This document shows, in pieces, positions 51,594-63,821 of a stretch of 64,000 bases of DNA (positions within the stretch are counted from its first letter, which is position 1; every line of letters begins with the position of its first letter). The notes beneath the pieces are model-generated. The model was not told the DNA's origin. It searched no databases and saw nothing but the letters and a program-made list of their open reading frames with translations. A program made the position numbers and the translations under genes. The DNA comes from Gemmatimonadota bacterium (GTDB lineage: Bacteria > Gemmatimonadota > Gemmatimonadetes > Gemmatimonadales > GWC2-71-9): assembly GCA_036679605.1 (NCBI GenBank), contig JAZDCZ010000398.1:32001-96000 (forward strand), written 5' to 3'.

Positions 51594-52157
51594 ATGTCTG
51601 GCGCTCTCATCTTCGGCACCGCCGCCCGCAGGGCGATCCTCGCCCGAACCTTCCTTGACTCATCTCGCGAGTTTTATCTGCGCGAACTCGTGCGTCTCAC
51701 CGGCTTTGCTCCACGAACGGTAAACCAGGAAATCGACCGACTGGTAGCTAGCGATCTTCTCACCGAGCGACGCCACGGCAACAGACGGTACCTTAGTGCG
51801 AACGAAAGACACCCGCTCTTCCGGCCCATCCGCGAGATTGTGTTGAAGACCGACGGGCTGGCGGGAGTACTGAGTGAGGCACTGGGAATTGACGGTGTCG
51901 ATTTCGCCTTTGTTTTCGGTTCGATTGCGGCGGCAGCGGCCAAAGGGGGTAGCGACATCGATCTTCTGATCGTGGGAGATATCGGACTGAGGGAGGCGGT
52001 CAAGCGATTGGCACCCGCGCAGGACCAACTCGAGCACGAGATCGTGCCAATCGTGTGGACCCTTCGGGAATTCGAGCGGCGGCGTCAAGATGGCGATCAC
52101 TTTCTCAGTGATATCTTGCGCGGACCCAGGATAGTGGTGGTCGGCAGTGAGCCTTGA
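51594..52157 (+). CDS. wHTH-MNT minimal nucleotidyltransferase (antitoxin)
   Basis: N-terminal wHTH (YLRELVR...VNQEIDRL); FGS-x10-DID motif. Confidence 0.88.
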   Translation: MSGALIFGTAARRAILARTFLDSSREFYLRELVRLTGFAPRTVNQEIDRLVASDLLTERRHGNRRYLSANERHPLFRPIREIVLKTDGLAGVLSEALGIDGVDFAFVFGSIAAAAAKGGSDIDLLIVGDIGLREAVKRLAPAQDQLEHEIVPIVWTLREFERRRQDGDHFLSDILRGPRIVVVGSEP

Positions 52158-52584
52158 GCGTTGGTTGGAGCACGGGTGGCTTAAGCGCCACACAACGTCG
52201 CGACAGGAAGTTCGGCTGCTGCTCGATGCCGTCGAGCGTGACCTACACGACGCAGGCCAGCGTCTATCCTCCGGGTGGCGGTTTGCTATCGCCTATACGT
52301 CGGCACTGCGTCTGAGTTCAGTAGCGCTATTCGCCTCTGGGTACAGAGCTGAACGGGACCACAAGCACTACCGGACGATAGCGGCGCTTCCGCTCGTGCT
52401 CGGTCCGGACGTGGCAGAGCTGGCGCAGTTTCTCGATACCTGCCGCTCCAAACGCCACGAAGTAACCTATGAATCGGCGACCGCCGTTTCCGAAGCAGAG
52501 GCCGATGAACTTATCGATGCGGTAGATGAATTGCGTAGGCGCCTCCGTGAGTGGCTGAAGGCCGCACATCCAGATTTGATTTGA
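52147..52584 (+). CDS. HEPN-fold protein (toxin partner)
   Basis: Helical; AY...ALFASGYR...H...RSKRHEVTY (R-x4-Y variant); overlaps MNT. Confidence 0.8.
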   Translation: MSLERWLEHGWLKRHTTSRQEVRLLLDAVERDLHDAGQRLSSGWRFAIAYTSALRLSSVALFASGYRAERDHKHYRTIAALPLVLGPDVAELAQFLDTCRSKRHEVTYESATAVSEAEADELIDAVDELRRRLREWLKAAHPDLI

Positions 52585-52813: not shown

Positions 52814-52867
52814 CTTTTAGGTGTGCTGGTTTCTCCTTACGAACTCCGCACCAACGGAGCGTGGCCC

Positions 52868-53269
52868 ATGTTGCGTACTCGGCGCTTTGCAATGGCGTTG
52901 TCTCTTCCACTGGCTCTCCTTTTTTCACAGCCCGTCTTGACCGAGGTGATCTCGGGCGATGTCTCTGTCAGCCCCGACCGGGCAACGACCGAGGCCCGCA
53001 CTGCCGAGACCGGCGGCCACAAGCTGAGCTTCACCGTCAGCAACACGGGCACAGAGACTGACACATACGAACTCATCTGTATAGGCGTGGGCCGGGTGAG
53101 CTGTGACGGTGCGAATCCCACTCACACCACGCTGGAACCGGGCCAGAGCGCCACCATCGCAGTTACCTACGATGTGAAGGAGGCTGGTGCTGGTCTCGTG
53201 CGCCTGATCGCGTTCAGCGAATCGAGTCTGGCGCGTGACGACGGCACCTACCGCATACCGGTCAAGTGA
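52868..53269 (+). CDS. Secreted single Ig-like domain protein, paralog of the Rhs N-terminal domain
   Basis: GGAG RBS; signal-like N-terminus; FTVSNTG...TLEPGQS Ig motif; 48/103 gapless identity (hand count) to 53479-53787. Confidence 0.8.
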   Translation: MLRTRRFAMALSLPLALLFSQPVLTEVISGDVSVSPDRATTEARTAETGGHKLSFTVSNTGTETDTYELICIGVGRVSCDGANPTHTTLEPGQSATIAVTYDVKEAGAGLVRLIAFSESSLARDDGTYRIPVK

Positions 53270-53367: not shown

Positions 53368-56300
53368 ATGTCGGCTGCTCGTAAGTTCATTATCACACTC
53401 GCTGCTCTATCCCTTGCTATCGCGTTGCCCAACGTTCTCGCCGCTCAGGGCCCTCCTGGCGGCCCTCCTGGCGGTGGTGGATCGGTATCTGTAACGCCCG
53501 ACGGTGCCACTACACCGGACCGGATTGCCAACACCGACGATCACAGCGAGGACTTCACGGTTAAGAACACGGGGAGCGGCACCGACACGTTCTTCATAAG
53601 CTGTGGCGGCTCGAGCAATGTGACCTGCACGGGGGTCAGCCCCTCGCAGGTGACCCTGGGTGCTAATCAGAGCACGACAGTGACGGCCGACTACGATGTG
53701 GGTGCTGTTGGGACGGGGAACCTAGACGTTACTGCCTTCAGCGAGGACACGTTCGCCGAGGACAATGGCGACTACAACGTGCCGGTGATCTCAGCGCTTG
53801 CGGTACCCGAGGTAGACATAACGCCCTACAACCACGAGACCCAGCAGATGGGGCGCTGTGCGGCGTCCTGCTTTGCGGTCACGCACGCCCAGGGCACGGT
53901 GCCCTACGTGAGCCACGACACACCGCGCAACGTGACCCTGGTCTATCACGGCGACCGTGTGGATCCCAAGCCGTTCATCCACGTCAACGTACGGCACCCG
54001 GACAGCGAAACACCGGTGCCCTCGAAGTTCTGGCTCGAGGCCAAGAAGGATGGCGTGTTGCTGACGTTCCTAAATGGGGAGACCAGGCTCAAGTTCACGG
54101 CAGCCAGTTCGGGTTGGCAGCGGTTGGCCGGACAGTTCAACGCGAGTTCCTACAGCACTGGAGTCTATGCCCTAGACATCATCGTTACGGCCGACTACGG
54201 TGGTCAGGGCACCCAGCAGAAGGTGACCCAGACCAAGCTGGTGGTGGTAAACGAGAACAACTCCTCCATAGCACGCGGCTGGAACATTGCCGGTGTGCAG
54301 CGGCTCTACGTGCAGGGCGATGGTTCGGCATTCATCACCGAGGGAGACGGCTCGGCCGTGTATTTCCAGAAGTCGGGCAGCACGTTCATAACACCAGCGG
54401 GCGAGTTCTCGAAGCTCGTGGCTGGCGGGGGCGGAGGTTGGGACCGCTTCTACCCCGATTCCACACAGGTGAGTTTTAACAGCAGTGGCCGGATGACCCG
54501 GGTGTATGACCAGTTCAACAACATTACCAACTTCACCTATGTCGGCAACAACCTCACCTTGATTGCCGACCCAGCCAACAAGATGCTGAGTTTGACCTAC
54601 GGCACCTACGGGCTGAGTTCAATCAGGAGCACGATCACCCCCTACCGCTACACCAACTTCACGGTGCTGTCGAACAAGACTCTGACCAAGATCAAGGATC
54701 CCGACAACATCGCGACAAATTTCCAGTATGACGGGAGTAAGAGACTGTGGAAGGTCACGGACCGGCGGAGCAAGACGACAACTCTGGCATACGATTCGCT
54801 ATCGGGGAAACTAGCGAGCGTTACCGTGCCAGCTGTGCCGATCTTCACAGAGGGTACGGTATCACCCGTCACGCAGTTTGCCCCGTGGCAGCCGGTGGGC
54901 GTGCCGTATACTGCCACTTCATCTACGCCAGCCGCAATGGTGCGTCCAGCGGATGTCAAGGGCACTGTCACCGACCCGGGTAACCACGCGACTACTTTCA
55001 CGGTGGACCGCTGGGGCCAGCCGGTGGCGTCTACCGATCCCCTGAGCACGGTCACTACTATCAGCTACAACAGCAACGGGCTGCCGGTACGCACGGTGAA
55101 TTCTACCGATACGACCGCAGTCGACAGCTTGGACTACAACTTCGATGGGCTGGTGACCTACGCCAAGCCGACTGGTGGGACCGCTACCATCACCACGTAC
55201 GGCGCCTGGGCCCAGCCGACTCTGATCCTGGGCGACGGGCAGCCGAGCCGGACGTTCAAACTTGGCACCAACGGCCGCATCGACTCGACCTGGGTAGGGG
55301 GAACCAAGTACACACGCTTCACGTACGACAGCCGTGGTCGAGTGTTGACGGTCAAGGACGGTTTGAACAATCTGGTCCAGAGTTTTGCCTATAGCGGAAC
55401 CAACGGGAACAGGAGCAGTGTCACTCTTCCGGGCGGCAGGATCACGACGTACGGCTACGATGCCTACGGCCGGGTGACCACTGTGAGCACGGCGGGGCTG
55501 CCGACCAGAACGACGTACTACGATTTGTTGAACCGGCCAGACTCGGTCAAGGACGGTGTCAACACCAAGGCCACCCGGTTTGGCTACGACGCGCTGTACA
55601 GGACCAGCGTGACCGATCCCAAGGATCAGGTGTATAGCTTTACCCATAATGCACTCGGGTGGCTCACTCAGCAGACGGACCCGGTGAACAAGTCAGACAC
55701 TTACGAATATTCCAAGGACGGAGAACTCAAGCGCTGGAAGAACCGCAGGCTCGAGAGCACAGATTACGCGTATGACGTCATGCACCGGCAGACGTCCAAG
55801 TCGGGGTCCAATACGGACAACACGACATTTGCGTATTCGGACGACGGCAGGCGGGTCAAGGCAACGAGCCCGATGGCGACGGATTCTATCTTTCTGAACG
55901 TGCTGGGCGCAGCGGAGAAGACGTGGACTCAGATGGGTGGCAAGACCTATACGCGGAACTACAACTACACCCAGGCGGGTCTGTTGGACAGCGTGTGGAC
56001 CAATGTATCGCACGAGACATTCCTGGGTAGGAAGTACAAGTACACCACTAGTCGTGGCACGCTGGACGAGATCAGGGTAGGTGGCAAGAGTACCTCACAC
56101 ACGTTCAACTCAAACCTGCAGCACACGTCTACGACCTTTGCCGGTGGAGACGTGGTGACCCGCCAGTACACGACGCCGCATTCGACAGCCAAGATCGAGA
56201 GCAACCAGGCGGGGCTGGACGTATTGGTGAGAAGGCTTGAGCACGACACGGTAGGTAGGATAAAGACCCAGTACACCGATCCCATCCCCGTAGAGTTCGG

Positions 56301-57714
56301 CACGGTGTTTGGCTACGATGGCTTGAACCGTGTGGTCAGGGACACGATGGGTATGATAGAGTCCGATCTCTGCACGTTTGATCCCGACAACGGCTACGAC
56401 TGTCCACCGCCCACGACTGATTCGGTGCGGAGCTTCATCTACGACGCCGTGGGGAACATGACGCGGGATTCGTTGTACCGCGTGTGGAACGGAGGTACGG
56501 ACGTGGCCACGGGCGCGTATGGCACCGGCAACAGGATCACCTCGTTCGACGGGTGCAGCTACCAGACCGACGCGGATGGGAACGTGACCCAGCGGTCGGG
56601 CTGTGGTAGCACCGCCAACTTCTATTGGTCGTCGGAGAACGTATTGGACTCGATGACTGTGGGTGGTCAGAAGATAAAGAATTATTACGATGCATTCGGT
56701 AGACTTGTAAAGCGGGACGTGTATGGGACGGTGAGCTATTACTGGTGGGACGGAGACAATCTCTTTGCCGAGCTGGATGCTACGGGGCAGAAGAAGGCCG
56801 AGTACTCCTACTATCCGGGTCTCGACAACCTGCATGCTCTGGTCGACCAGGACGACAGCGTGTACTTTGCCCACAGCGACGGAATGGGGAATGTTGTCGG
56901 TCTGGTGAGCGACAGCAAGGTACTCAAGCGGCGTTACGACTACGATCTCAAGGGTAGTCTGGTTGGGACCGGTGACATCAAACCGTTCAGTGACAGAGAT
57001 CGTGCGCGTTTCAAGGGTGCCTTGTGGATGGGCCCGGAGGTGGACCTCTACTACATGAGGAATAGGTGGTACGAGACAAGCACTGGGCGTTTCTTGAGTG
57101 AGGATCCCATTGGACTGGGTGGTGGTATCAACGTCTACGCGTTTGCGGGAAACAATCCGGTGTCGGGGCGGGATCCGTTGGGGCTCTGTCCCCCTTATCC
57201 CTGCGATCTGCCGGGTGTCACTGTGACCGGCGTCCGCGAAGATCCCTTTGCTGACTTCGACAAGATGGTCGGCAGTGACCGTGACACGTTCGATGGCTCT
57301 GGCCCAGGTGGGTTCGGTTGGGGTGGTGGTGGCGGAGGCGGAGGTGTTGTCAGTGGGCTGCAGCAATCGCGGAGCTGTAGCTTCAACCAGAACTTTCTGC
57401 GCCAGATAAATGAGCAATTTGACTTGGCCGCAAATGACGGTCGGGAACGCGCTGGTTTTTACGGTGCACCGTGGACGTCACCAGTCCGCCTCACGGCTAT
57501 CGGTGGACCCGATTTCGTTCGTATTCCATTGCGTCCTGGCGCCGCGGGGTATTGGCACACTCACCAGAACCCGCCGCAGACGCATCTTCAGGGTCCCAGC
57601 CAGGACGACTTGGACTTTGCGGTCAATCGCGCTAACTCAACCTTATTCGCAGTTGCCCGCGACTCGCTTTATGTGATTAGTCAGAATGGCTCTGTAACGG
57701 CATGCGGTCGGTAG
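53368..57714 (+). CDS. Sec-signal Rhs/YD-repeat toxin with N-terminal Ig domain and C-terminal JAB/MPN-like tip
   Basis: GGAGG RBS; signal peptide ...VLAA-QG; YD repeats; core YYMRNRWY..GRFLSEDP..NPVSGRDPLGL; tip ERAG...HTH-x11-S-QDD. Confidence 0.92.
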   Translation: MSAARKFIITLAALSLAIALPNVLAAQGPPGGPPGGGGSVSVTPDGATTPDRIANTDDHSEDFTVKNTGSGTDTFFISCGGSSNVTCTGVSPSQVTLGANQSTTVTADYDVGAVGTGNLDVTAFSEDTFAEDNGDYNVPVISALAVPEVDITPYNHETQQMGRCAASCFAVTHAQGTVPYVSHDTPRNVTLVYHGDRVDPKPFIHVNVRHPDSETPVPSKFWLEAKKDGVLLTFLNGETRLKFTAASSGWQRLAGQFNASSYSTGVYALDIIVTADYGGQGTQQKVTQTKLVVVNENNSSIARGWNIAGVQRLYVQGDGSAFITEGDGSAVYFQKSGSTFITPAGEFSKLVAGGGGGWDRFYPDSTQVSFNSSGRMTRVYDQFNNITNFTYVGNNLTLIADPANKMLSLTYGTYGLSSIRSTITPYRYTNFTVLSNKTLTKIKDPDNIATNFQYDGSKRLWKVTDRRSKTTTLAYDSLSGKLASVTVPAVPIFTEGTVSPVTQFAPWQPVGVPYTATSSTPAAMVRPADVKGTVTDPGNHATTFTVDRWGQPVASTDPLSTVTTISYNSNGLPVRTVNSTDTTAVDSLDYNFDGLVTYAKPTGGTATITTYGAWAQPTLILGDGQPSRTFKLGTNGRIDSTWVGGTKYTRFTYDSRGRVLTVKDGLNNLVQSFAYSGTNGNRSSVTLPGGRITTYGYDAYGRVTTVSTAGLPTRTTYYDLLNRPDSVKDGVNTKATRFGYDALYRTSVTDPKDQVYSFTHNALGWLTQQTDPVNKSDTYEYSKDGELKRWKNRRLESTDYAYDVMHRQTSKSGSNTDNTTFAYSDDGRRVKATSPMATDSIFLNVLGAAEKTWTQMGGKTYTRNYNYTQAGLLDSVWTNVSHETFLGRKYKYTTSRGTLDEIRVGGKSTSHTFNSNLQHTSTTFAGGDVVTRQYTTPHSTAKIESNQAGLDVLVRRLEHDTVGRIKTQYTDPIPVEFGTVFGYDGLNRVVRDTMGMIESDLCTFDPDNGYDCPPPTTDSVRSFIYDAVGNMTRDSLYRVWNGGTDVATGAYGTGNRITSFDGCSYQTDADGNVTQRSGCGSTANFYWSSENVLDSMTVGGQKIKNYYDAFGRLVKRDVYGTVSYYWWDGDNLFAELDATGQKKAEYSYYPGLDNLHALVDQDDSVYFAHSDGMGNVVGLVSDSKVLKRRYDYDLKGSLVGTGDIKPFSDRDRARFKGALWMGPEVDLYYMRNRWYETSTGRFLSEDPIGLGGGINVYAFAGNNPVSGRDPLGLCPPYPCDLPGVTVTGVREDPFADFDKMVGSDRDTFDGSGPGGFGWGGGGGGGGVVSGLQQSRSCSFNQNFLRQINEQFDLAANDGRERAGFYGAPWTSPVRLTAIGGPDFVRIPLRPGAAGYWHTHQNPPQTHLQGPSQDDLDFAVNRANSTLFAVARDSLYVISQNGSVTACGR

Positions 57715-57789
57715 AGCGGGGTGATCCGATCATGCCTGGTTGCGATATCGAGTTGCCCTTGTCATTTGCATTAGAAGGGATACACAAAA

Positions 57790-58401
57790 ATGAGTCGATG
57801 GATCGGTAGCGTCATTGCGACCGTCGTTCTTGCGGCGACTGCGGTCAGTGGTATTGCGTGTGGGCCGCCCGACGGAAGCGACTCACAGTCGGACCGCGCG
57901 GCTGACGCTCAGCAATGCCTGGTGGATGAACTGGGGCTATCCACAGTTGCCCGAGCGGCAGACCTAGTCGATGTGTTCGATCTCGAACTCCACGTGACCA
58001 CTGGTCGGGAGCAGGATTCAGTGATCCGAGGTCGCATTACCCTAGTGACGTGGCCAGACAGCACTAAAGGTGAAGAGCGTGGAGCATCACCATTCGTGCT
58101 CTATGGCTGGACCACTATCTCTAGCGAGCGAATTGGGGATGTAGTGATGACCACCCCTCTATCATCAACAGATCCGACACAACCGGGCGTCATCGGCTTG
58201 GCGGACCGTAGGGACAGTGCGATTGTGCTTACCCTTGGCTCAGCTGCAGAAGGCGGAAACTTTTCACTTCACACGGGTCTACGCTTCCAGGTGCTACGTA
58301 GCGGACCGGACGGGTTCCGCGGAACGTGGGAGGTTGCAAGCCTTCGGCGTAGGCGACCAGCAGGCATCTTCTGCGCTCGGCGCGTGCAGGAGGGCAACTA
58401 A
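57790..58401 (+). CDS. Putative lipoprotein immunity protein 1
   Basis: Directly after the toxin; hydrophobic leader ending GIA-C. Confidence 0.65.
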   Translation: MSRWIGSVIATVVLAATAVSGIACGPPDGSDSQSDRAADAQQCLVDELGLSTVARAADLVDVFDLELHVTTGREQDSVIRGRITLVTWPDSTKGEERGASPFVLYGWTTISSERIGDVVMTTPLSSTDPTQPGVIGLADRRDSAIVLTLGSAAEGGNFSLHTGLRFQVLRSGPDGFRGTWEVASLRRRRPAGIFCARRVQEGN

Positions 58402-58525
58402 ACGACGAAGTTACCGGGAGAGCTATATTCGTTCGTGAGGTAGTTGAAGCACGTGAGGTGGTAGCTTTCGCACGCAGACGCTTCACCTGCGATTCGCGAC
58501 CGATACAACTTCGTTGGCGATATCG

Positions 58526-58633
58526 CTACGGGCAGTGCAATCACGAGCACAATCAATCCCTACCGCCACAGCTACATGCCGGTGCTGTCGAACAAGAAGC
58601 TGACGCAGATCAAGGATCCGGTCCGACCGTTAG
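58526..58633 (+). pseudogene. Degenerate Rhs fragment ahead of orphan module 2
   Basis: Similar to about 54606-54700 (CGGTGCTGTCGAACAAGA...AGATCAAGGATCC); ends in TAG where the main gene has TAC. Confidence 0.75.
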
Positions 58634-60553
58634 AAGTATTCCAAGCACGGCGAACTAAAGCGCTGGAAGAACCGCAGGCTCGAGAGCACAGATTACGCGT
58701 ATGACGTCATGCACCGGCAGACGTCCAAGTCGGGCTCCAACACGGACAACACGACGTTTGCGTATTCGGACGACGGTCGGCGGGTGAAGGCAACGAGCCT
58801 CATGGCGACTGATTCTATATATCTGTGGACCAATGTATCGCATGAGACGTTCCTGGGCAGGAAGTACAAGTACACCACCAGCCGCGGCACGCTGGACGAG
58901 ATCAGGGTAGGTGGCAAGAGTACCTCACACACGTTCAACTCAAACCTGCAGCCCACGTCTACGACCTTTGCCGGTGGAGACGTGGTGACCCGCCAGTACA
59001 CGACGCCGCATTCGACAGCCAAGATCGAGAGCAACCAGGCGGGGCTGGACGTATTGGTGAGGCGGCTTGAGTACGACACGGTAGGCAGGATAAAGACCCA
59101 GTACACCGATCCCATCCCCGTAGAGTTCGGTACGGTGTTTGGTTATGATGGGCTTAACCGTGTGGTAAGGGACACGATGGGAATGATCGAGTCCGATCTC
59201 TGCACGTTCGATCCAGATGACGGGTATGACTGTCCTCCTCCTACTACGGACTCGGTGCGGAGCTTCATCTACGACGCCGTGGGTAACATGACGAGGGATT
59301 CCTTGCGAAGGGTCTTTAACGGCGGCACCGACGTGGCCACGGGCGCGTATGGTACGGCCAACAGGATCACGTCGTTCGACGGCTGCAACTACCTGACCGA
59401 TGCCGATGGCAACGTGACTCAGAGATCGGGCTGTGGCAGTACTGTCACGTTCTACTGGTCATCCGAGAACCGTTTGGACTCGATGCTGGTCGGTGCTCAA
59501 AAGATCAGGAGCTACTACGACGCGTTCGGTAGGCTTGTGAAGCGTGACGTGTACGGGACCATCAGTTACTACTGGTGGGATGGGGACAATCTCTTTGCCG
59601 AGCTCGACGGTGCTGGCCGGAAGAAGGCCGAGTACTCTTATTATCCGGGTCTCGACAACTTGCATGCTCTGGTCGACCAGGACGACAGCGTGTTCTTTGC
59701 CCATAGCGACGGGTTTGGCAACGTGATCGGCTTGGTGAGTGAGACGAAGGTCTTGAGGCGAAAGTACGAGTACGATCTCAAGGGCAACCTGGTGGGGGGC
59801 TGGGACACCAAGCCGTTCAGTGACAGAGACCGAGCGCGTTTCAAGGGAGCGCTCTGGATGGGCCCGGAGGTGGATATGTACTATATGAGGAATCGGTGGT
59901 ACGAAACACACAGCGGACGGTTCCTGAGTGAAGATCCGATTGGATTGGACGGTGGGATCAATCAATACGTTTACTCAAAGAACAATCCGGTGTCGTTGAA
60001 AGATCCGGCCGGCCTGAAGATATGTTTTGCCAAATTCGACAGTGGAGACCGTGAACGGCTTGTGGATTCACTTGAACATGCTTTGGACGCGATTATCGAG
60101 ATTGGAGATGATGGTTGTTTGAAGAAAATCATTTCGTTGGCTGATCCGGGTACCCGGAGAGGTCGCATTGCACGGCTCTTGGTTGCGGCTCTCAACGCTC
60201 AGATTGAATTTGGACGGAAAATCATAATCGAAGGGGCCTTAGGTGAGGGGTCGAATTTCAGCCGCCTCAGCTTGAATGTGCTCCTTTGGAAGATGAAGTT
60301 GAAAAAATGGAGGGTAAATATCGACCGGGGCCAGATAGGACTCCGGTACGCAACTGACGACGCAATCAGGGGTTGCGGGCGGTACGGAGCGACGTGGAGC
60401 GCGGGCTCAATCTTCATTCATGAAACGGTGGGTCACGGACGGGATATCCCATTCGGAGGAGGCATCCTGGGGCAGCGTGAGGCGATACTTACTGAGAATC
60501 TCTACCACTTTCTCGAAGGTGGGCCAAGCAGGAGCATACGTTGTGGTTTGTAG
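58634..60553 (+). pseudogene. Orphan Rhs core + HExxGH metallopeptidase-like tip (first ATG 58709)
   Basis: Near-identical to 55704-57180 with a 99-nt in-frame deletion; DPAGL; tip IHETVGH...EAI..EN. Confidence 0.88.
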
Positions 60554-61397
60554 GTCGACCATACCATCTAGTTCGCAGATCTTGGCGATGCTGGCTTCAG
60601 TGTGTTGCGGCGTCGGCTGCCTTCAGCCGGATCGCGCGAACCCGACCCTGCAGGAACTCGGACACGGAATTGTGGAGCGTGCAATCCAGGGAGATTTCGC
60701 GTCGGTGGGGTGGTATGCCACAAACGTTCGTGTGGTTCAGAATATTGCATGGCTGGCGCGTGAGGAACCCGACATACTCGCCCGATTGGTTGCTAAAGGG
60801 CGTATGGATGGTCGGTGGTCTGATTCTACATTGGCGGATTCTCTGCCGGCCGTATATACCGTGGCTGAAGGAGATGGCCTAGACACGGCTCTGACGTTCA
60901 CCTTCGTTCGCAATAGAGGAGTGTGGAAGGTGTCCGAGCTGCTTCTGACTGATCATCTGCAGCAGCGAGCGGACTCGACGAGAGTTCAGGTACTGGAGAG
61001 GTTGGAGCGTATGTCGGCCCGTGCGGCGGGCGACGTTGGGAGCGTGCTCCTTTCGCTGGTTGTTGAGCAGCTAGATGCCGTGGTAGCTGGCGATTTTTTC
61101 ACTGCTGCTGCGATCTCAGCACATCCCTGGGCGATATCGGATGCGGCCATCCTTCGTAAGGAGGACCCGACACTCCTTGAAGCTGCCAGAGGACTAGACA
61201 CGGTTCGAGTTGACTGGATCGTGGATCATGCGAGAGCGGACTGGGTCGTGGATGAGAAGACAGGCGATTCGGTGGGAGTGGGGTTGTGGTTGAGATCGGC
61301 AGGCGTGGCGGGGCTGGGACGCGCCGTGGACTACGACTTCGTTCGCCAAGGTGACGTTTGGATGATTCTGCGCGGGCCAAATTTCCGTCAGCCGTGA
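60543..61397 (+). CDS. Putative lipoprotein immunity protein 2 with an internal domain duplication
   Basis: AGGAG RBS + GTG 60543 overlapping the toxin stop; GVG-C lipobox-like; two GDF...L.xE(E/D)P...FVR...VW units. Confidence 0.65.
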   Translation: MVCRSTIPSSSQILAMLASVCCGVGCLQPDRANPTLQELGHGIVERAIQGDFASVGWYATNVRVVQNIAWLAREEPDILARLVAKGRMDGRWSDSTLADSLPAVYTVAEGDGLDTALTFTFVRNRGVWKVSELLLTDHLQQRADSTRVQVLERLERMSARAAGDVGSVLLSLVVEQLDAVVAGDFFTAAAISAHPWAISDAAILRKEDPTLLEAARGLDTVRVDWIVDHARADWVVDEKTGDSVGVGLWLRSAGVAGLGRAVDYDFVRQGDVWMILRGPNFRQP

Positions 61398-61942
61398 TCG
61401 TTACTTCTAGTAGTTGAGATCTGAGTCAAGCAGTTGTCCCCGTAGGTGGCCAGGCGTCGGCGGTTGCGTCAGGATGGGCTTTGTTGTAGCCGCTGACGGT
61501 TTCGTCGATCCCCATCGTCGCTTGCCGGCGCACGAGCGCTTCGATCCGTCATTCCTGATGGCCAGTGTGCCCTGACAGGAGTTCCTATTTGCTTGCACGC
61601 CGGCGCTACGCAAGGCGTGCGAGGAGGCCGTCTGTGGTGCGGACAAGGCGACGACAGGCCCTCCGATGACGCCGTGAGGGAGATCGGTCGAGAGTGTCCT
61701 CGCCAGGCTCGAGGAGAATCCTATGTTGGCGAGGCGGTCTTGAAAGGGCGAGGGATTTCGTGCGGCGCCAGTGCTGCCGTGCGGCAACACCTGGACGACC
61801 CGCGCGCCAAGCGCGAATGTCCGAAAACGCTAGAGCCGACTCTGCCGCGCCTTGGAGCGCAATGACGCGATACAGTGGTCGACCACGGAATGCTGATCGG
61901 CGGCGGAGTGCCTAGTTGAACATCCTGCCCCATAGAACATTG

Positions 61943-62204
61943 TCAAACTCGGCACGAACGGCAGTACACGACGCCGCATTCAACGGCCAAGGGCTCAGAA
62001 GATCAGGAACTCCTACGATGCATTTGGGCGGCTGGTTAAACGGGATGTTTCTGATACTATCAGCTATTATTGGTGGGACGGCGGGAATCTCTTTGCCGAG
62101 CTGGACGCTACGGGGCAGAAGAAGGCCGAGTACTCTTATTATCCTGGCTTGGACAACCTGCATGCTCTGGTCGACCAGGACGACAAGGTGTATTTTGCCC
62201 ACAG
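61943..62204 (+). pseudogene. Mosaic of collinear Rhs core fragments (orphan module 3, 5' part)
   Basis: 61943-62 matches 55256-75; 61962-91 matches 56164-93; 61992-62204 matches about 56665-876. Confidence 0.85.
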
Positions 62205-62330
62205 GGCCGCGGATAATAACGCGGATGTACGCGGATGCGGTGAATGCTCTCGATCACCTAAGCGCGAGCTCCGGGTTTTCGATGCGCGAGAGCACCGATC
62301 CGCGTTCATCCGCGCAACAGATCCGCGGCT
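62205..62330. repeat. 126-bp imperfect palindrome (REP/MITE-like) interrupting the Rhs core
   Basis: 3x CGCGGAT on the left arm, 3x ATCCGCG on the right arm; inner TGCTCTCG/CGAGAGCA. Confidence 0.8.
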
Positions 62331-62333
62331 TGG

Positions 62334-63026
62334 ATGGGCCCGGAGGTGGATCTCTACTACATGAGGAATAGGTGGTACGAGGTGCACAGCGGGCGATTCT
62401 TGAGCGAGGACCCGATAGGACTGGGTGGTGGTATCAACGTCTACGCGTTTGCGGGTGGGAATCCGGTGTCGGGGAGAGATCCTAGTGGGCTCACTCCTTG
62501 CGATCCTCCGGTTATCGCGCACCAGCTCGACGCCAGTGGTAACTGTGAGCTCGTTATAATTGAGCTTGATCCTGTTATCCTTGATCCGGTGGTGGTGACC
62601 GGACTTAGGGGAGGGAGCGGAGGCTTTCCGTACACTGGCGTCCCGTTCGGGCGGAACCCAATCACGTCAAGCTTTGGCCCACGGGTACTAGACGGTGTAA
62701 GTGGTCACCACAATGGCATCGATATTCGAGGAGACAAGGGAACGCCCACAAGGGTAGTTTGCGAAGGAACGGTTACTTTCGCCGGTCCTGGAGCACCACG
62801 CGAGGGGATCAAGGTCACCATTTACCAAAATGGCTATTCTCAGTTCTACGTGCATTTGCATCGAGTTGCTGACGGAATCGAGGTTGGGTCCAGACTATCT
62901 CGTGGCCAAGTGATGGGCTATTCCGGTAAGACTGGTAACGCTACCGCCCCAAGCCTCCACTTTGGAGCGTACGGTCCAACTGGGTTCATAGACCCATTAG
63001 CCGGGGTACAATTTTGTGGTAACTAG
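62334..63026 (+). CDS. Orphan Rhs core end + M23/LytM peptidase tip
   Basis: YYMRNRWY...DPSGL; ITSSFGPR, HNGID, YVHL, SGKTG..T.PSLHF. Confidence 0.88.
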   Translation: MGPEVDLYYMRNRWYEVHSGRFLSEDPIGLGGGINVYAFAGGNPVSGRDPSGLTPCDPPVIAHQLDASGNCELVIIELDPVILDPVVVTGLRGGSGGFPYTGVPFGRNPITSSFGPRVLDGVSGHHNGIDIRGDKGTPTRVVCEGTVTFAGPGAPREGIKVTIYQNGYSQFYVHLHRVADGIEVGSRLSRGQVMGYSGKTGNATAPSLHFGAYGPTGFIDPLAGVQFCGN

Positions 63027-63110
63027 CATCGAGATTTGAGTTCGATCATGTGACCTCGGTTCCAATGTCGCGTTTTCTGTGTCGGTAAGTATGTAATGGA
63101 GGTTATCGTC

Positions 63111-63821
63111 ATGAGTGCACTGCTCAGACAAATCGACTCACCCGGATCTCCGAGTATCGGGTTGCCGTCGTCGATAGCAAGCACGGCTGGAGTTGCGGTG
63201 TTGGTAGCCGTCATGGTGGGCTGCGCTAATGATGCCGCGGCTGGCCAAGCCACCCGAACCAAACCTTGGCGATCCCTCGGTCAGGTAACAATCCAGCTGG
63301 GTGACTGTAGTTCTATTCCCCCAACTGGTTCCTGTCAAATCTTCTACGGACAGAGCATCGAGATAGTCAGAGGCGTGAAATCCGATACGATCGGCCCGAT
63401 CTCAACAGTGCTAGGACCATGGGTACTCATGGATTCGACCTTGGTGCTCCCGTGGCTCGTGGAAGCGGATGGTTCATTGCAAGTCGAGCTGCGCGTCTAC
63501 CATAGGGATTCGGGTGAGATCACAGCCGTAAGTATGCCGAATGATTATGATCCTGCGTTTACGGGTGGACACTTGTTTCCGCCACGCGGACTCATGGCGT
63601 ATCGAGTCGCGCTGCCTGAAGAAGATGGCAGTCGTATTGTTGTGCGTACGTGGGGTGATTGGCGACTAGTAACGGAGGGGCCGCTCGTTAAAGGCTGTAC
63701 CGACACAGGCCTGGAGTACCATTGGTCTGTCAACGGACAGTATATTGTATGGTATCCGCCGCCATGTGAAGATGGTATTCCGGAACGGGACTCGGTCTAC
63801 GTCAAGAGCCCTAAGAGGTAG
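63111..63821 (+). CDS. Putative lipoprotein immunity protein 3
   Basis: GGAGG RBS; hydrophobic stretch ending MVG-C; follows the M23 tip. Confidence 0.6.
   Translation: MSALLRQIDSPGSPSIGLPSSIASTAGVAVLVAVMVGCANDAAAGQATRTKPWRSLGQVTIQLGDCSSIPPTGSCQIFYGQSIEIVRGVKSDTIGPISTVLGPWVLMDSTLVLPWLVEADGSLQVELRVYHRDSGEITAVSMPNDYDPAFTGGHLFPPRGLMAYRVALPEEDGSRIVVRTWGDWRLVTEGPLVKGCTDTGLEYHWSVNGQYIVWYPPPCEDGIPERDSVYVKSPKR

Follow-up and report, generated by a model that had tools for sequence, protein, structure and literature searches.

The 64,000-nucleotide stretch of Gemmatimonadota DNA analysed here (contig JAZDCZ010000398.1, positions 32,001 to 96,000; hereafter the window) carries a full-length Rhs/YD-repeat protein followed by two orphan cassettes, and two of its three C-terminal tips open with a leader whose sequence matches the TonB boxes of TonB-dependent transporters (TBDTs). 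The match is not a chance one; what follows shows directly that the motif is there and enriched, where it sits, and that it is no part of the toxin fold. We regard it as reasonably probable that this is an Rhs toxin independent of a type VI secretion system (T6SS), whose cleaved tips resemble miniature bacteriocins made of a swappable entry leader, a linker and a toxin, the TonB-box mimic being one class of leader.

TonB-box-like leaders in two Rhs tips

The Rhs protein (P0001, 1448 amino acids (aa), 53368..57714; this and all other features given here lie on the + strand) matches PF05593, TIGR03696 and TIGR01643 and runs through a Sec-like signal peptide, an immunoglobulin (Ig)-like domain, a YD shell, an Rhs-associated core and tip 1, in that order. 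The core ends in a DPLG autocleavage motif (57172..57183), directly after which tip 1 begins at 57184 with LCPPYPCD-LPGVTVTG-VR; cleavage at DPxG would leave a free N-terminus beside the box. The octamer LPGVTVTG lies at 57208–57231, exactly where the original prediction, made from the window's letters, had placed it, and with the V-R that follows it makes up tip residues 9–18 (57208..57237). That prediction had also seen a glycine-rich run about 20 residues further on; the run, GSGPGGFGWGGGGGGGG, begins 21 residues past the box, and the Gly-rich linker (57295..57345) joins the leader to a putative toxin domain of the JAMM/JAB fold (57364..57711). Orphan tip 3 (62490..63026) has a box-bearing leader, a short Gly linker and an M23 peptidase domain (PF01551, E 4e-18; peptidoglycan endopeptidase models match below cut-off). 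It reads LDPVI-LDPVVVTG-LRGGSGG, with the half repeat LDPVI before a box that was again correctly placed at 62580–62603 and that extends with L-R to 62609 (62580..62609).

Boxes were scored with a matrix built from 18 box-like octamers, collected with our own search pattern ahead of 22 of the 24 plug-domain matches in the window's source genome (G000), and a tip was called positive if it reached at least 10 bits within the first 60 residues after DPxG. Tip 1 scores 17.9 bits and tip 3 19.9 bits, and the 18 training boxes score themselves at 13.7–21.3; LPGVTVTG-x-R and LDPVVVTG-x-R match own-genome boxes such as LDPVIVTA and LPAVVVTA. Among 884,856 positions in 1,540 long G000 open reading frames (ORFs), just nine reach 17.9 bits or more, namely seven training boxes, one further protein that is plug-like by eye, and tip 1. 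The threshold of 10 bits is reached by 167 of 14,135 ordinary 60-residue ORF segments (1.2%). Tip 2 has no box, with a top score of 5.6 bits, as had been foreseen together with the remark that the motif is not universal.

Enrichment of the box at the start of tips

Rhs proteins of the Gemmatimonadota type (114 of 120 proteins parsed, plus tips from genome loci) gave 217 unique tips, or 214 for the pooled count, which leaves out the window's three. Sixteen of the 214 are positive, against 3 with reversed sequences and a mean of 2.0 (maximum 7) with column-scrambled matrices. Under a crude division of these tips by core, class 1 has 12 positives among 152 (shuffle mean 0.69, maximum 3 in 200 shuffles), with 1 of 150 at residues 61–120 and 0 of 150 in the last 60 residues, and class 2 has 3 of 49 (shuffle mean 0.36), with 0 of 47 in the last 60. 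Judged by eye, about three of the 16 positives are not boxes, whereas about ten leaders that visibly resemble a box score just 5–10 bits. A Bacteroidota set of DUF6443 Rhs proteins, searched with only the core end of a box-bearing locus (109 of 120 parsed, 105 unique tips), is positive in 43 of 105 tips, against 0.75 after shuffling and 1 of 104 in the last 60 residues; this frequency is valid for that one Bacteroidota clade only.

The T6SS-type control set (71 proteins, of which 60 could be parsed and 16 carry PF05488, plus the tips of four loci) contains no positive among 56 unique tips, as expected if injected toxins require no import signal. A hydrophobic N-terminus is present in 2 of 60 of these proteins versus 78 of 107 of the Gemmatimonadota type and 83 of 95 of the Bacteroidota set. 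Both the positional enrichment over shuffled tips and its absence from T6SS-type Rhs are thus as the original prediction would have them.

We also scanned GTDB DNA for N-P-x4-D-P-x-G followed 4–14 codons on by a loose box, which returned at least 100 stretches. Among the matches listed, 68 were classed as Rhs ends, 63 of them in frame, and 39 non-redundant ones reach at least 10 bits: 25 from Bacteroidota, 7 from Pseudomonadota and 7 others by title, with one each titled Nitrospirales, deltaproteobacterium, Chloroflexia, Saccharimonadales and 'bacterium A37T11' and two that have no title. Six with Bacillota-type titles are all hydrophobic helices below 8 bits. Plug domains were found in five of the five non-Bacteroidota genomes checked. 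An Arg two places past the box, which is outside the search pattern, occurs in 24 of these 39 high scorers versus a background of 4.5%, and in 0 of 19 low scorers. It is also present in 10 of the 43 positives of the Bacteroidota set, in 4 of 16 in a Gemmatimonadota-type count that includes both window tips, in 5 of the 18 own-genome boxes, and in both box-bearing tips of the window (1 and 3). The box is real, and it is widespread in some diderm lineages.

Leader and toxin domain as separate modules

An AlphaFold2 model of tip 1, made with an 8-row alignment, folds residues 61–176 and leaves residues 1–53 below a predicted local distance difference test (pLDDT) score of 50; a low pLDDT does not in itself prove disorder, and on this model the box sits in an accessible, unfolded N-terminal segment. 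In a model of the last 1,200 Rhs residues the shell is confident (mostly 80–95) and the tip is at about 20–35, a level too low to place the leader. The nearest structure to the tip 1 toxin domain is PfJAMM1 (5ld9; Z 9.3, root-mean-square deviation 3.2, 106 residues aligned), and the fold, alignment and model agree on a metal site of the form E...HxH...PSxxD. Tip 1 has no Pfam match at E up to 0.1, the Tox-JAB-1 profile (PF15659) included, and a sequence search of its domain against solved structures gave nothing significant.

The same toxin domains also bear other leaders. The JAB domain follows a box in tip 1, P0313 and P0314; in P0104, P0030 and P0315 the place of the box is taken by a Cys-closed aromatic hairpin, and P0316 and P0318 have other leaders. 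Tip 3 is the only one of ten M23-type tips with the box, and another in G000 has an acidic leader. The box is therefore not a strand of the toxin fold, an outcome that the original prediction had named as one that would refute it had it been otherwise. Its start ranges from tip residue 1 to 50, and on the core tree it is scattered, with 14 changes for 15 box-bearing rows (149 of 500 shuffles are equally low); all 15 rows lie within one 155-row clade, and none is found among the other 33 rows. From the varied leaders on JAB and M23 domains, the variable start and the scatter on the tree, we conclude that tips consist of leader, linker and toxin, with the leader exchanged separately from the toxin, and that the box is one of several leader types. 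We rejected the idea that the box belongs to a particular lineage of cores, as box-bearing rows do not cluster on that tree. We also rejected the Gly-rich linker as part of the box signal: such linkers occur in 12 of 28 box tips versus 66 of 189 boxless tips (p = 0.41) and go with the general tip layout. The original description of the tip starts as boxes plus Gly-rich linkers thus stands for the boxes, and the linkers are not tied to them.

Box-bearing tips include both enzymes of the envelope (M23, NlpC/P60, lipase-like) and nucleases that act in the cytoplasm (colicin D-like, REase-7); just 5 of 44 have a Pfam match. The nuclease tips would require a further step at the inner membrane. In a crude and noisy screen of immunity genes, a hydrophobic N-terminus was found in 13 of 14 box cassettes versus 66 of 118 non-box Gemmatimonadota cassettes, with a lipobox in 4 of the 14.

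Other kinds of leader were seen in the same collection. A Cys-closed aromatic beta-hairpin with a Gly linker behind it opens about 48 of the 217 related tips (for example P0005, P0031, P0104, P0106, P0117, L002:967-1503 and L015), which makes a second leader class, found on unrelated toxins; through strand pairing, these hairpins may attach to some machine of the outer membrane. In P0014, P0020, P0023, P0095 and P0099 the hairpin leader has a DxDxDG loop, which we take to resemble a calcium-binding motif. After boxes or box-like leaders, P0050, the second tip of L013 and L076:1219-1803 have in common a segment of about 20 residues, WPFxTPR...NFGxRG, which is a candidate receptor-binding epitope.

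TonB machinery and secretion systems of the source genome

G000 (96.5% complete, 6.3% contaminated) has 24 plug-domain matches, 8 TonB_C matches and a tonB-exbB-exbD-exbD cluster, in which the exb genes were assigned by eye; a TonB is encoded at G000:C319:78960-79730. Searches for the T6SS sheath protein VipB, the VgrG OB-fold and PAAR gave no match in G000, with positive control searches, and the Rhs protein has a signal peptide instead; this Rhs is therefore very likely T6SS-independent, in keeping with the earlier suggestion that its shell would need no T6SS. The predicted Sec signal (53368..53445), with a basic N-region, a hydrophobic core and the end ...VLAA, was read from the sequence and a hydrophobicity screen rather than from a signal-peptide predictor. 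A search of G000 for SprA gave no match, but its controls were silent too.

Several other features of G000 were observed. Many short proteins (frames of 270–490 aa, on C422, C408, C294, C346, C357, C251, C326 and C427) have a TonB box and a plug-like domain; they are too small for a barrel, and several have a common GPLxGFYxR motif. A second, near-identical Rhs core (G000:C406:2493-4823) has an M23 tip with an acidic leader, and a separate Rhs family with short tips and no boxes is found on C372, C149, C236, C313, C393 and C426.

Other genes of the Rhs locus

The locus has the features of an Rhs/YD polymorphic toxin: a YD-repeat shell and Rhs-associated core and, judged by sequence alone, DPxG, a variable tip, a small downstream gene and orphan cassettes. 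The best Foldseek matches of the shell are Rhs cores, and close Rhs homologues are titled Gemmatimonadales. Tip 1 is followed by putative immunity protein 1 (57790..58401; lipoprotein-type signal …GIAC), which has no family match in Pfam and NCBIfam profile searches. Orphan cassette 2 (58634..60553) consists of a core remnant to 60013 and then tip 2 (60014–60553), which is HExxH metallopeptidase-like and whose atlas look-alikes are of the M91, M85 and PipA families (similarity 0.93–0.95, a lead only); putative immunity protein 2 (60543..61397; …GVGC) follows, with a GTG start read from the sequence. Broken Rhs core remnants, read as stop-to-stop frames and ending in DPSG (61936..62489), precede tip 3, and putative immunity protein 3 (63096..63821; …MVGC) comes after it. 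The three lipoprotein-type signals were read by eye. By their position these downstream ORFs are putative cognate immunity proteins, and the M23 and JAB domains together with the gene order suggest that the tips are toxic.

Adjoining the Rhs gene upstream is an ORF for a small secreted Ig-like protein (52823..53269, start codon uncertain) that resembles the Ig domain at the Rhs N-terminus and has Pfam Ig-like and NCBIfam choice-of-anchor D matches, both below cut-off. Just upstream of the locus, at 51594–52584, a nucleotidyltransferase and a HEPN-like gene resemble by eye an MNT-HEPN toxin-antitoxin pair, and a transposase-like ORF (G000:C332:96090-96809, also by eye) lies after the cassette array, just beyond the end of the window.

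A possible TonB-driven route into the target cell

In group B bacteriocins, as described in parts of three papers, a disordered N-terminus threads an outer-membrane channel and TonB binds the box and pulls the toxin in, and in the case of KlebC that channel need not be a TBDT (PMC12927319, PMC11658791, PMC5821083). By analogy, the Rhs variant described here probably works like a Ton-dependent bacteriocin, and we think it fairly likely that the tip is drawn across the outer membrane by the TonB of the target cell. As the signal peptide suggests, the Rhs protein would be exported by Sec; as in other members of the family, it would then cleave itself at DPxG, and the tip would stay in the shell with its N-terminal leader free. 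A section of PMC11461821 reports that an Rhs tip can be held unfolded inside the shell. Once the protein had left the producer, its shell, Ig domain or leader might dock on a channel in a related cell's outer membrane, into which the unfolded leader would thread; TonB-ExbBD of the target would pair with the box by a beta-strand and draw the tip into the periplasm, as with pyocin S2 and klebicin C. There the M23 and JAB domains would act in the envelope, and lipoprotein immunity would shield kin. The presence of the box in non-injected Rhs and its absence from injected Rhs fit import into the target. A broader proposal is that the signal-peptide Rhs of Bacteroidota, Gemmatimonadota and scattered other diderms are caged bacteriocins: the shell would bring an unfolded tip, short swappable leaders (TonB boxes, Cys-stapled beta-hairpins, acidic and hydrophobic segments) would choose the entry route, and the target's TonB would extract the toxin from the shell and take it over the outer membrane in one step. 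We offer it tentatively and lean slightly against it.

A number of points weigh against TonB-driven import. In all, 198 of the 214 Gemmatimonadota-type tips, like tip 2, are below threshold and presumably still functional; the Bacteroidota clade was picked through a box-bearing member, and related sequences in all sets are not independent. By eye, some above-threshold scores (P0083, P0010, L093, L145 and L160) come from hydrophobic helices or from stretches rich in Gly. There is no enrichment in the order of genome G682 (family title Wenzhouxiangellaceae, which we place in Xanthomonadales): 80 unique tips, taken from the top-ranked matches and many of them on signal-peptide Rhs, have 2 positives versus 0.8 after shuffling, both hydrophobic helices by eye. 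This TBDT-bearing order leads us to reject the notion that the box marks signal-peptide Rhs in general. A strong match with the Arg, L199:608-1213, is on a 3.9-kb contig titled Saccharimonadales and is either mis-binned or a real exception. On the producer side, PorV was not found in G000 (controls positive), the sole secretin of G000 sits in a pilMNOPQ-like cluster, with no dedicated secretin of a type II secretion system (T2SS) found, and our searches turned up no route by which the protein would cross the outer membrane of the producer; if exposed in that cell's periplasm, the box could also meet the cell's own TonB first. The tips, at about 180 aa, are far smaller than colicins, and none of the 44 box-bearing tips has a receptor-binding Pfam domain, although the shell, the Ig domain or the segment after the box could serve as receptor binder. 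The case for TonB binding and uptake is itself one of analogy. The original prediction of import through the target's TonB is partly supported: the enrichment, the absence from T6SS-type tips and the position outside the fold hold good; the Gly linker is not tied to the box, and the order without enrichment tells against generality.

The box might instead be a beta-augmentation strand for some other partner (the shell wall, Bam, an Lpt/Tol component or a receptor) and a TonB box in looks only, which we consider unlikely: alternating V-x-V-T is a generic strand pattern and strand-like leaders are common, as the Cys-closed hairpins above attest, but the match includes a non-generic L-[DEP] start, a T-[GA] finish and, two places further, the Arg; reversed and column-scrambled controls are at background, and the start position varies. 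AlphaFold2 put no tip segment confidently on the shell, a weak point given that the tip had no usable alignment. It is quite unlikely that a true TonB box serves the producer, whose own TonB would extract the tip from the shell, hold it, or power a TonB-linked release. The protein does cross the producer's periplasm, searches of the genome found neither a T6SS nor PorV nor a dedicated T2SS secretin, and TonB-dependent export of PopC is described in a part of PMC6434023; TonB, however, pulls inward, which suits entry, and all the cassettes depend on a single shell and a single way out of the cell, yet the box is on only part of them.

We judge it improbable that the box is a relic without function, left when tip cassettes acquired fragments of transporter genes by recombination. 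Tips do recombine freely, plug-domain genes are numerous in these lineages, and some Bacteroidota leaders look by eye like mature transporter N-termini; against this, the box alone has been kept, in frame and within the first 50 residues, in several phyla and on many tips that are unrelated to one another, and the C-terminal 60 residues lack it. Peptides of the TonB-box type can inhibit processes that depend on TonB, and so the box might be a decoy that jams the target's TonB rather than an import handle; this we find very improbable, since every box-bearing tip examined has a long C-terminal domain and the peptide would still have to get into the periplasm. Chance, a caveat of the original prediction for so short a motif, is refuted for the family and scarcely credible as a general account: 1.2% of ordinary segments do reach the threshold, and single matches of 8–12 bits may be chance; against it stand 43 of 105 and 16 of 214 positives where about 1–2 are expected, the scores of the window's two boxes and the independent Arg signal.

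TonB-driven import, if true, would bear on how Rhs/YD toxins without T6SS or Tc machinery exit the shell and enter the target, a question stated to be open for teneurin-like proteins in a portion of PMC13018210: with a TonB box, the cleaved N-terminus would have both an exit direction and an energy source. Such import would join two kinds of bacterial weaponry so far treated apart, predict many narrow-spectrum antibacterials in Bacteroidota, and supply short natural leaders for the study of protein import across outer membranes. The question is reduced to a peptide-binding assay and a tonB knockout.

Comparison with known systems

We found no paper that links a TonB box to Rhs tips in a search whose coverage stopped short of subscription papers and bioRxiv supplements. 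TonB is unmentioned in the parts consulted of the Bcn-A paper (PMC7259588), the teneurin-like paper (PMC13018210) and the Rhs survey 10.1101/2025.05.08.652813, and in most of Zhang et al. 2012; a paper in which the terms TonB box and Rhs both occur mentions Rhs in a list only. The group B bacteriocins (colicins M, B, D and Ia, pyocin S2, klebicin C) have a box in a disordered N-terminal segment before the toxin and a cognate immunity gene, and the Rhs tips likewise have a box in an N-terminal segment modelled as unfolded and a putative immunity gene. In contrast to these bacteriocins, the Rhs box heads an autocleaved C-terminal tip within a YD shell, the precursor has a signal peptide, the tips have no recognisable receptor-binding domain, and leaders are exchanged without regard to the toxin that follows.

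Xanthomonas perforans Bcn-A, T2SS-linked Rhs, bacterial teneurin-like proteins and WapA, which we group with T6SS-independent Rhs, likewise have a YD shell and a polymorphic tip and no injection machine. Bcn-A is diffusible and requires the T2SS, according to part of PMC7259588, and a passage of PMC13018210 states that delivery of the teneurin-like proteins is unresolved. Unlike the Rhs described here, the sample from the G682 order, in which Bcn-A itself is not included, lacks box enrichment. T6SS Rhs effectors with PAAR or VgrG (RhsA, Tse15, RhsP, Tre23) have the same shell fold, DPxG cleavage and orphan tip-immunity arrays; this Rhs differs from them in having no PAAR, in its signal peptide and Ig domain, and in the box, and its relatives' tips, with their leaders, are longer (median 182 versus 141 aa).

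According to a section of PMC3482391, Tox-JAB-1 goes together with Imm65, an immunity protein that is a lipoprotein. Tox-JAB-1 and tip 1 have in common a JAB fold with E, HxH, S and D and a lipoprotein-type immunity protein, putative in the case of tip 1, but tip 1 has an atlas similarity of just 0.80–0.82 (a lead only), no Pfam match, and an immunity protein that is unrelated by profile. The last comparison is with CdiA-CT, which like the Rhs tips is modular. CdiA is a two-partner filament, and in its tip an N-terminal entry part is swapped independently of the toxin domain; the CdiA entry domains cross the inner membrane, whereas the Rhs leader points to a step at the outer membrane.

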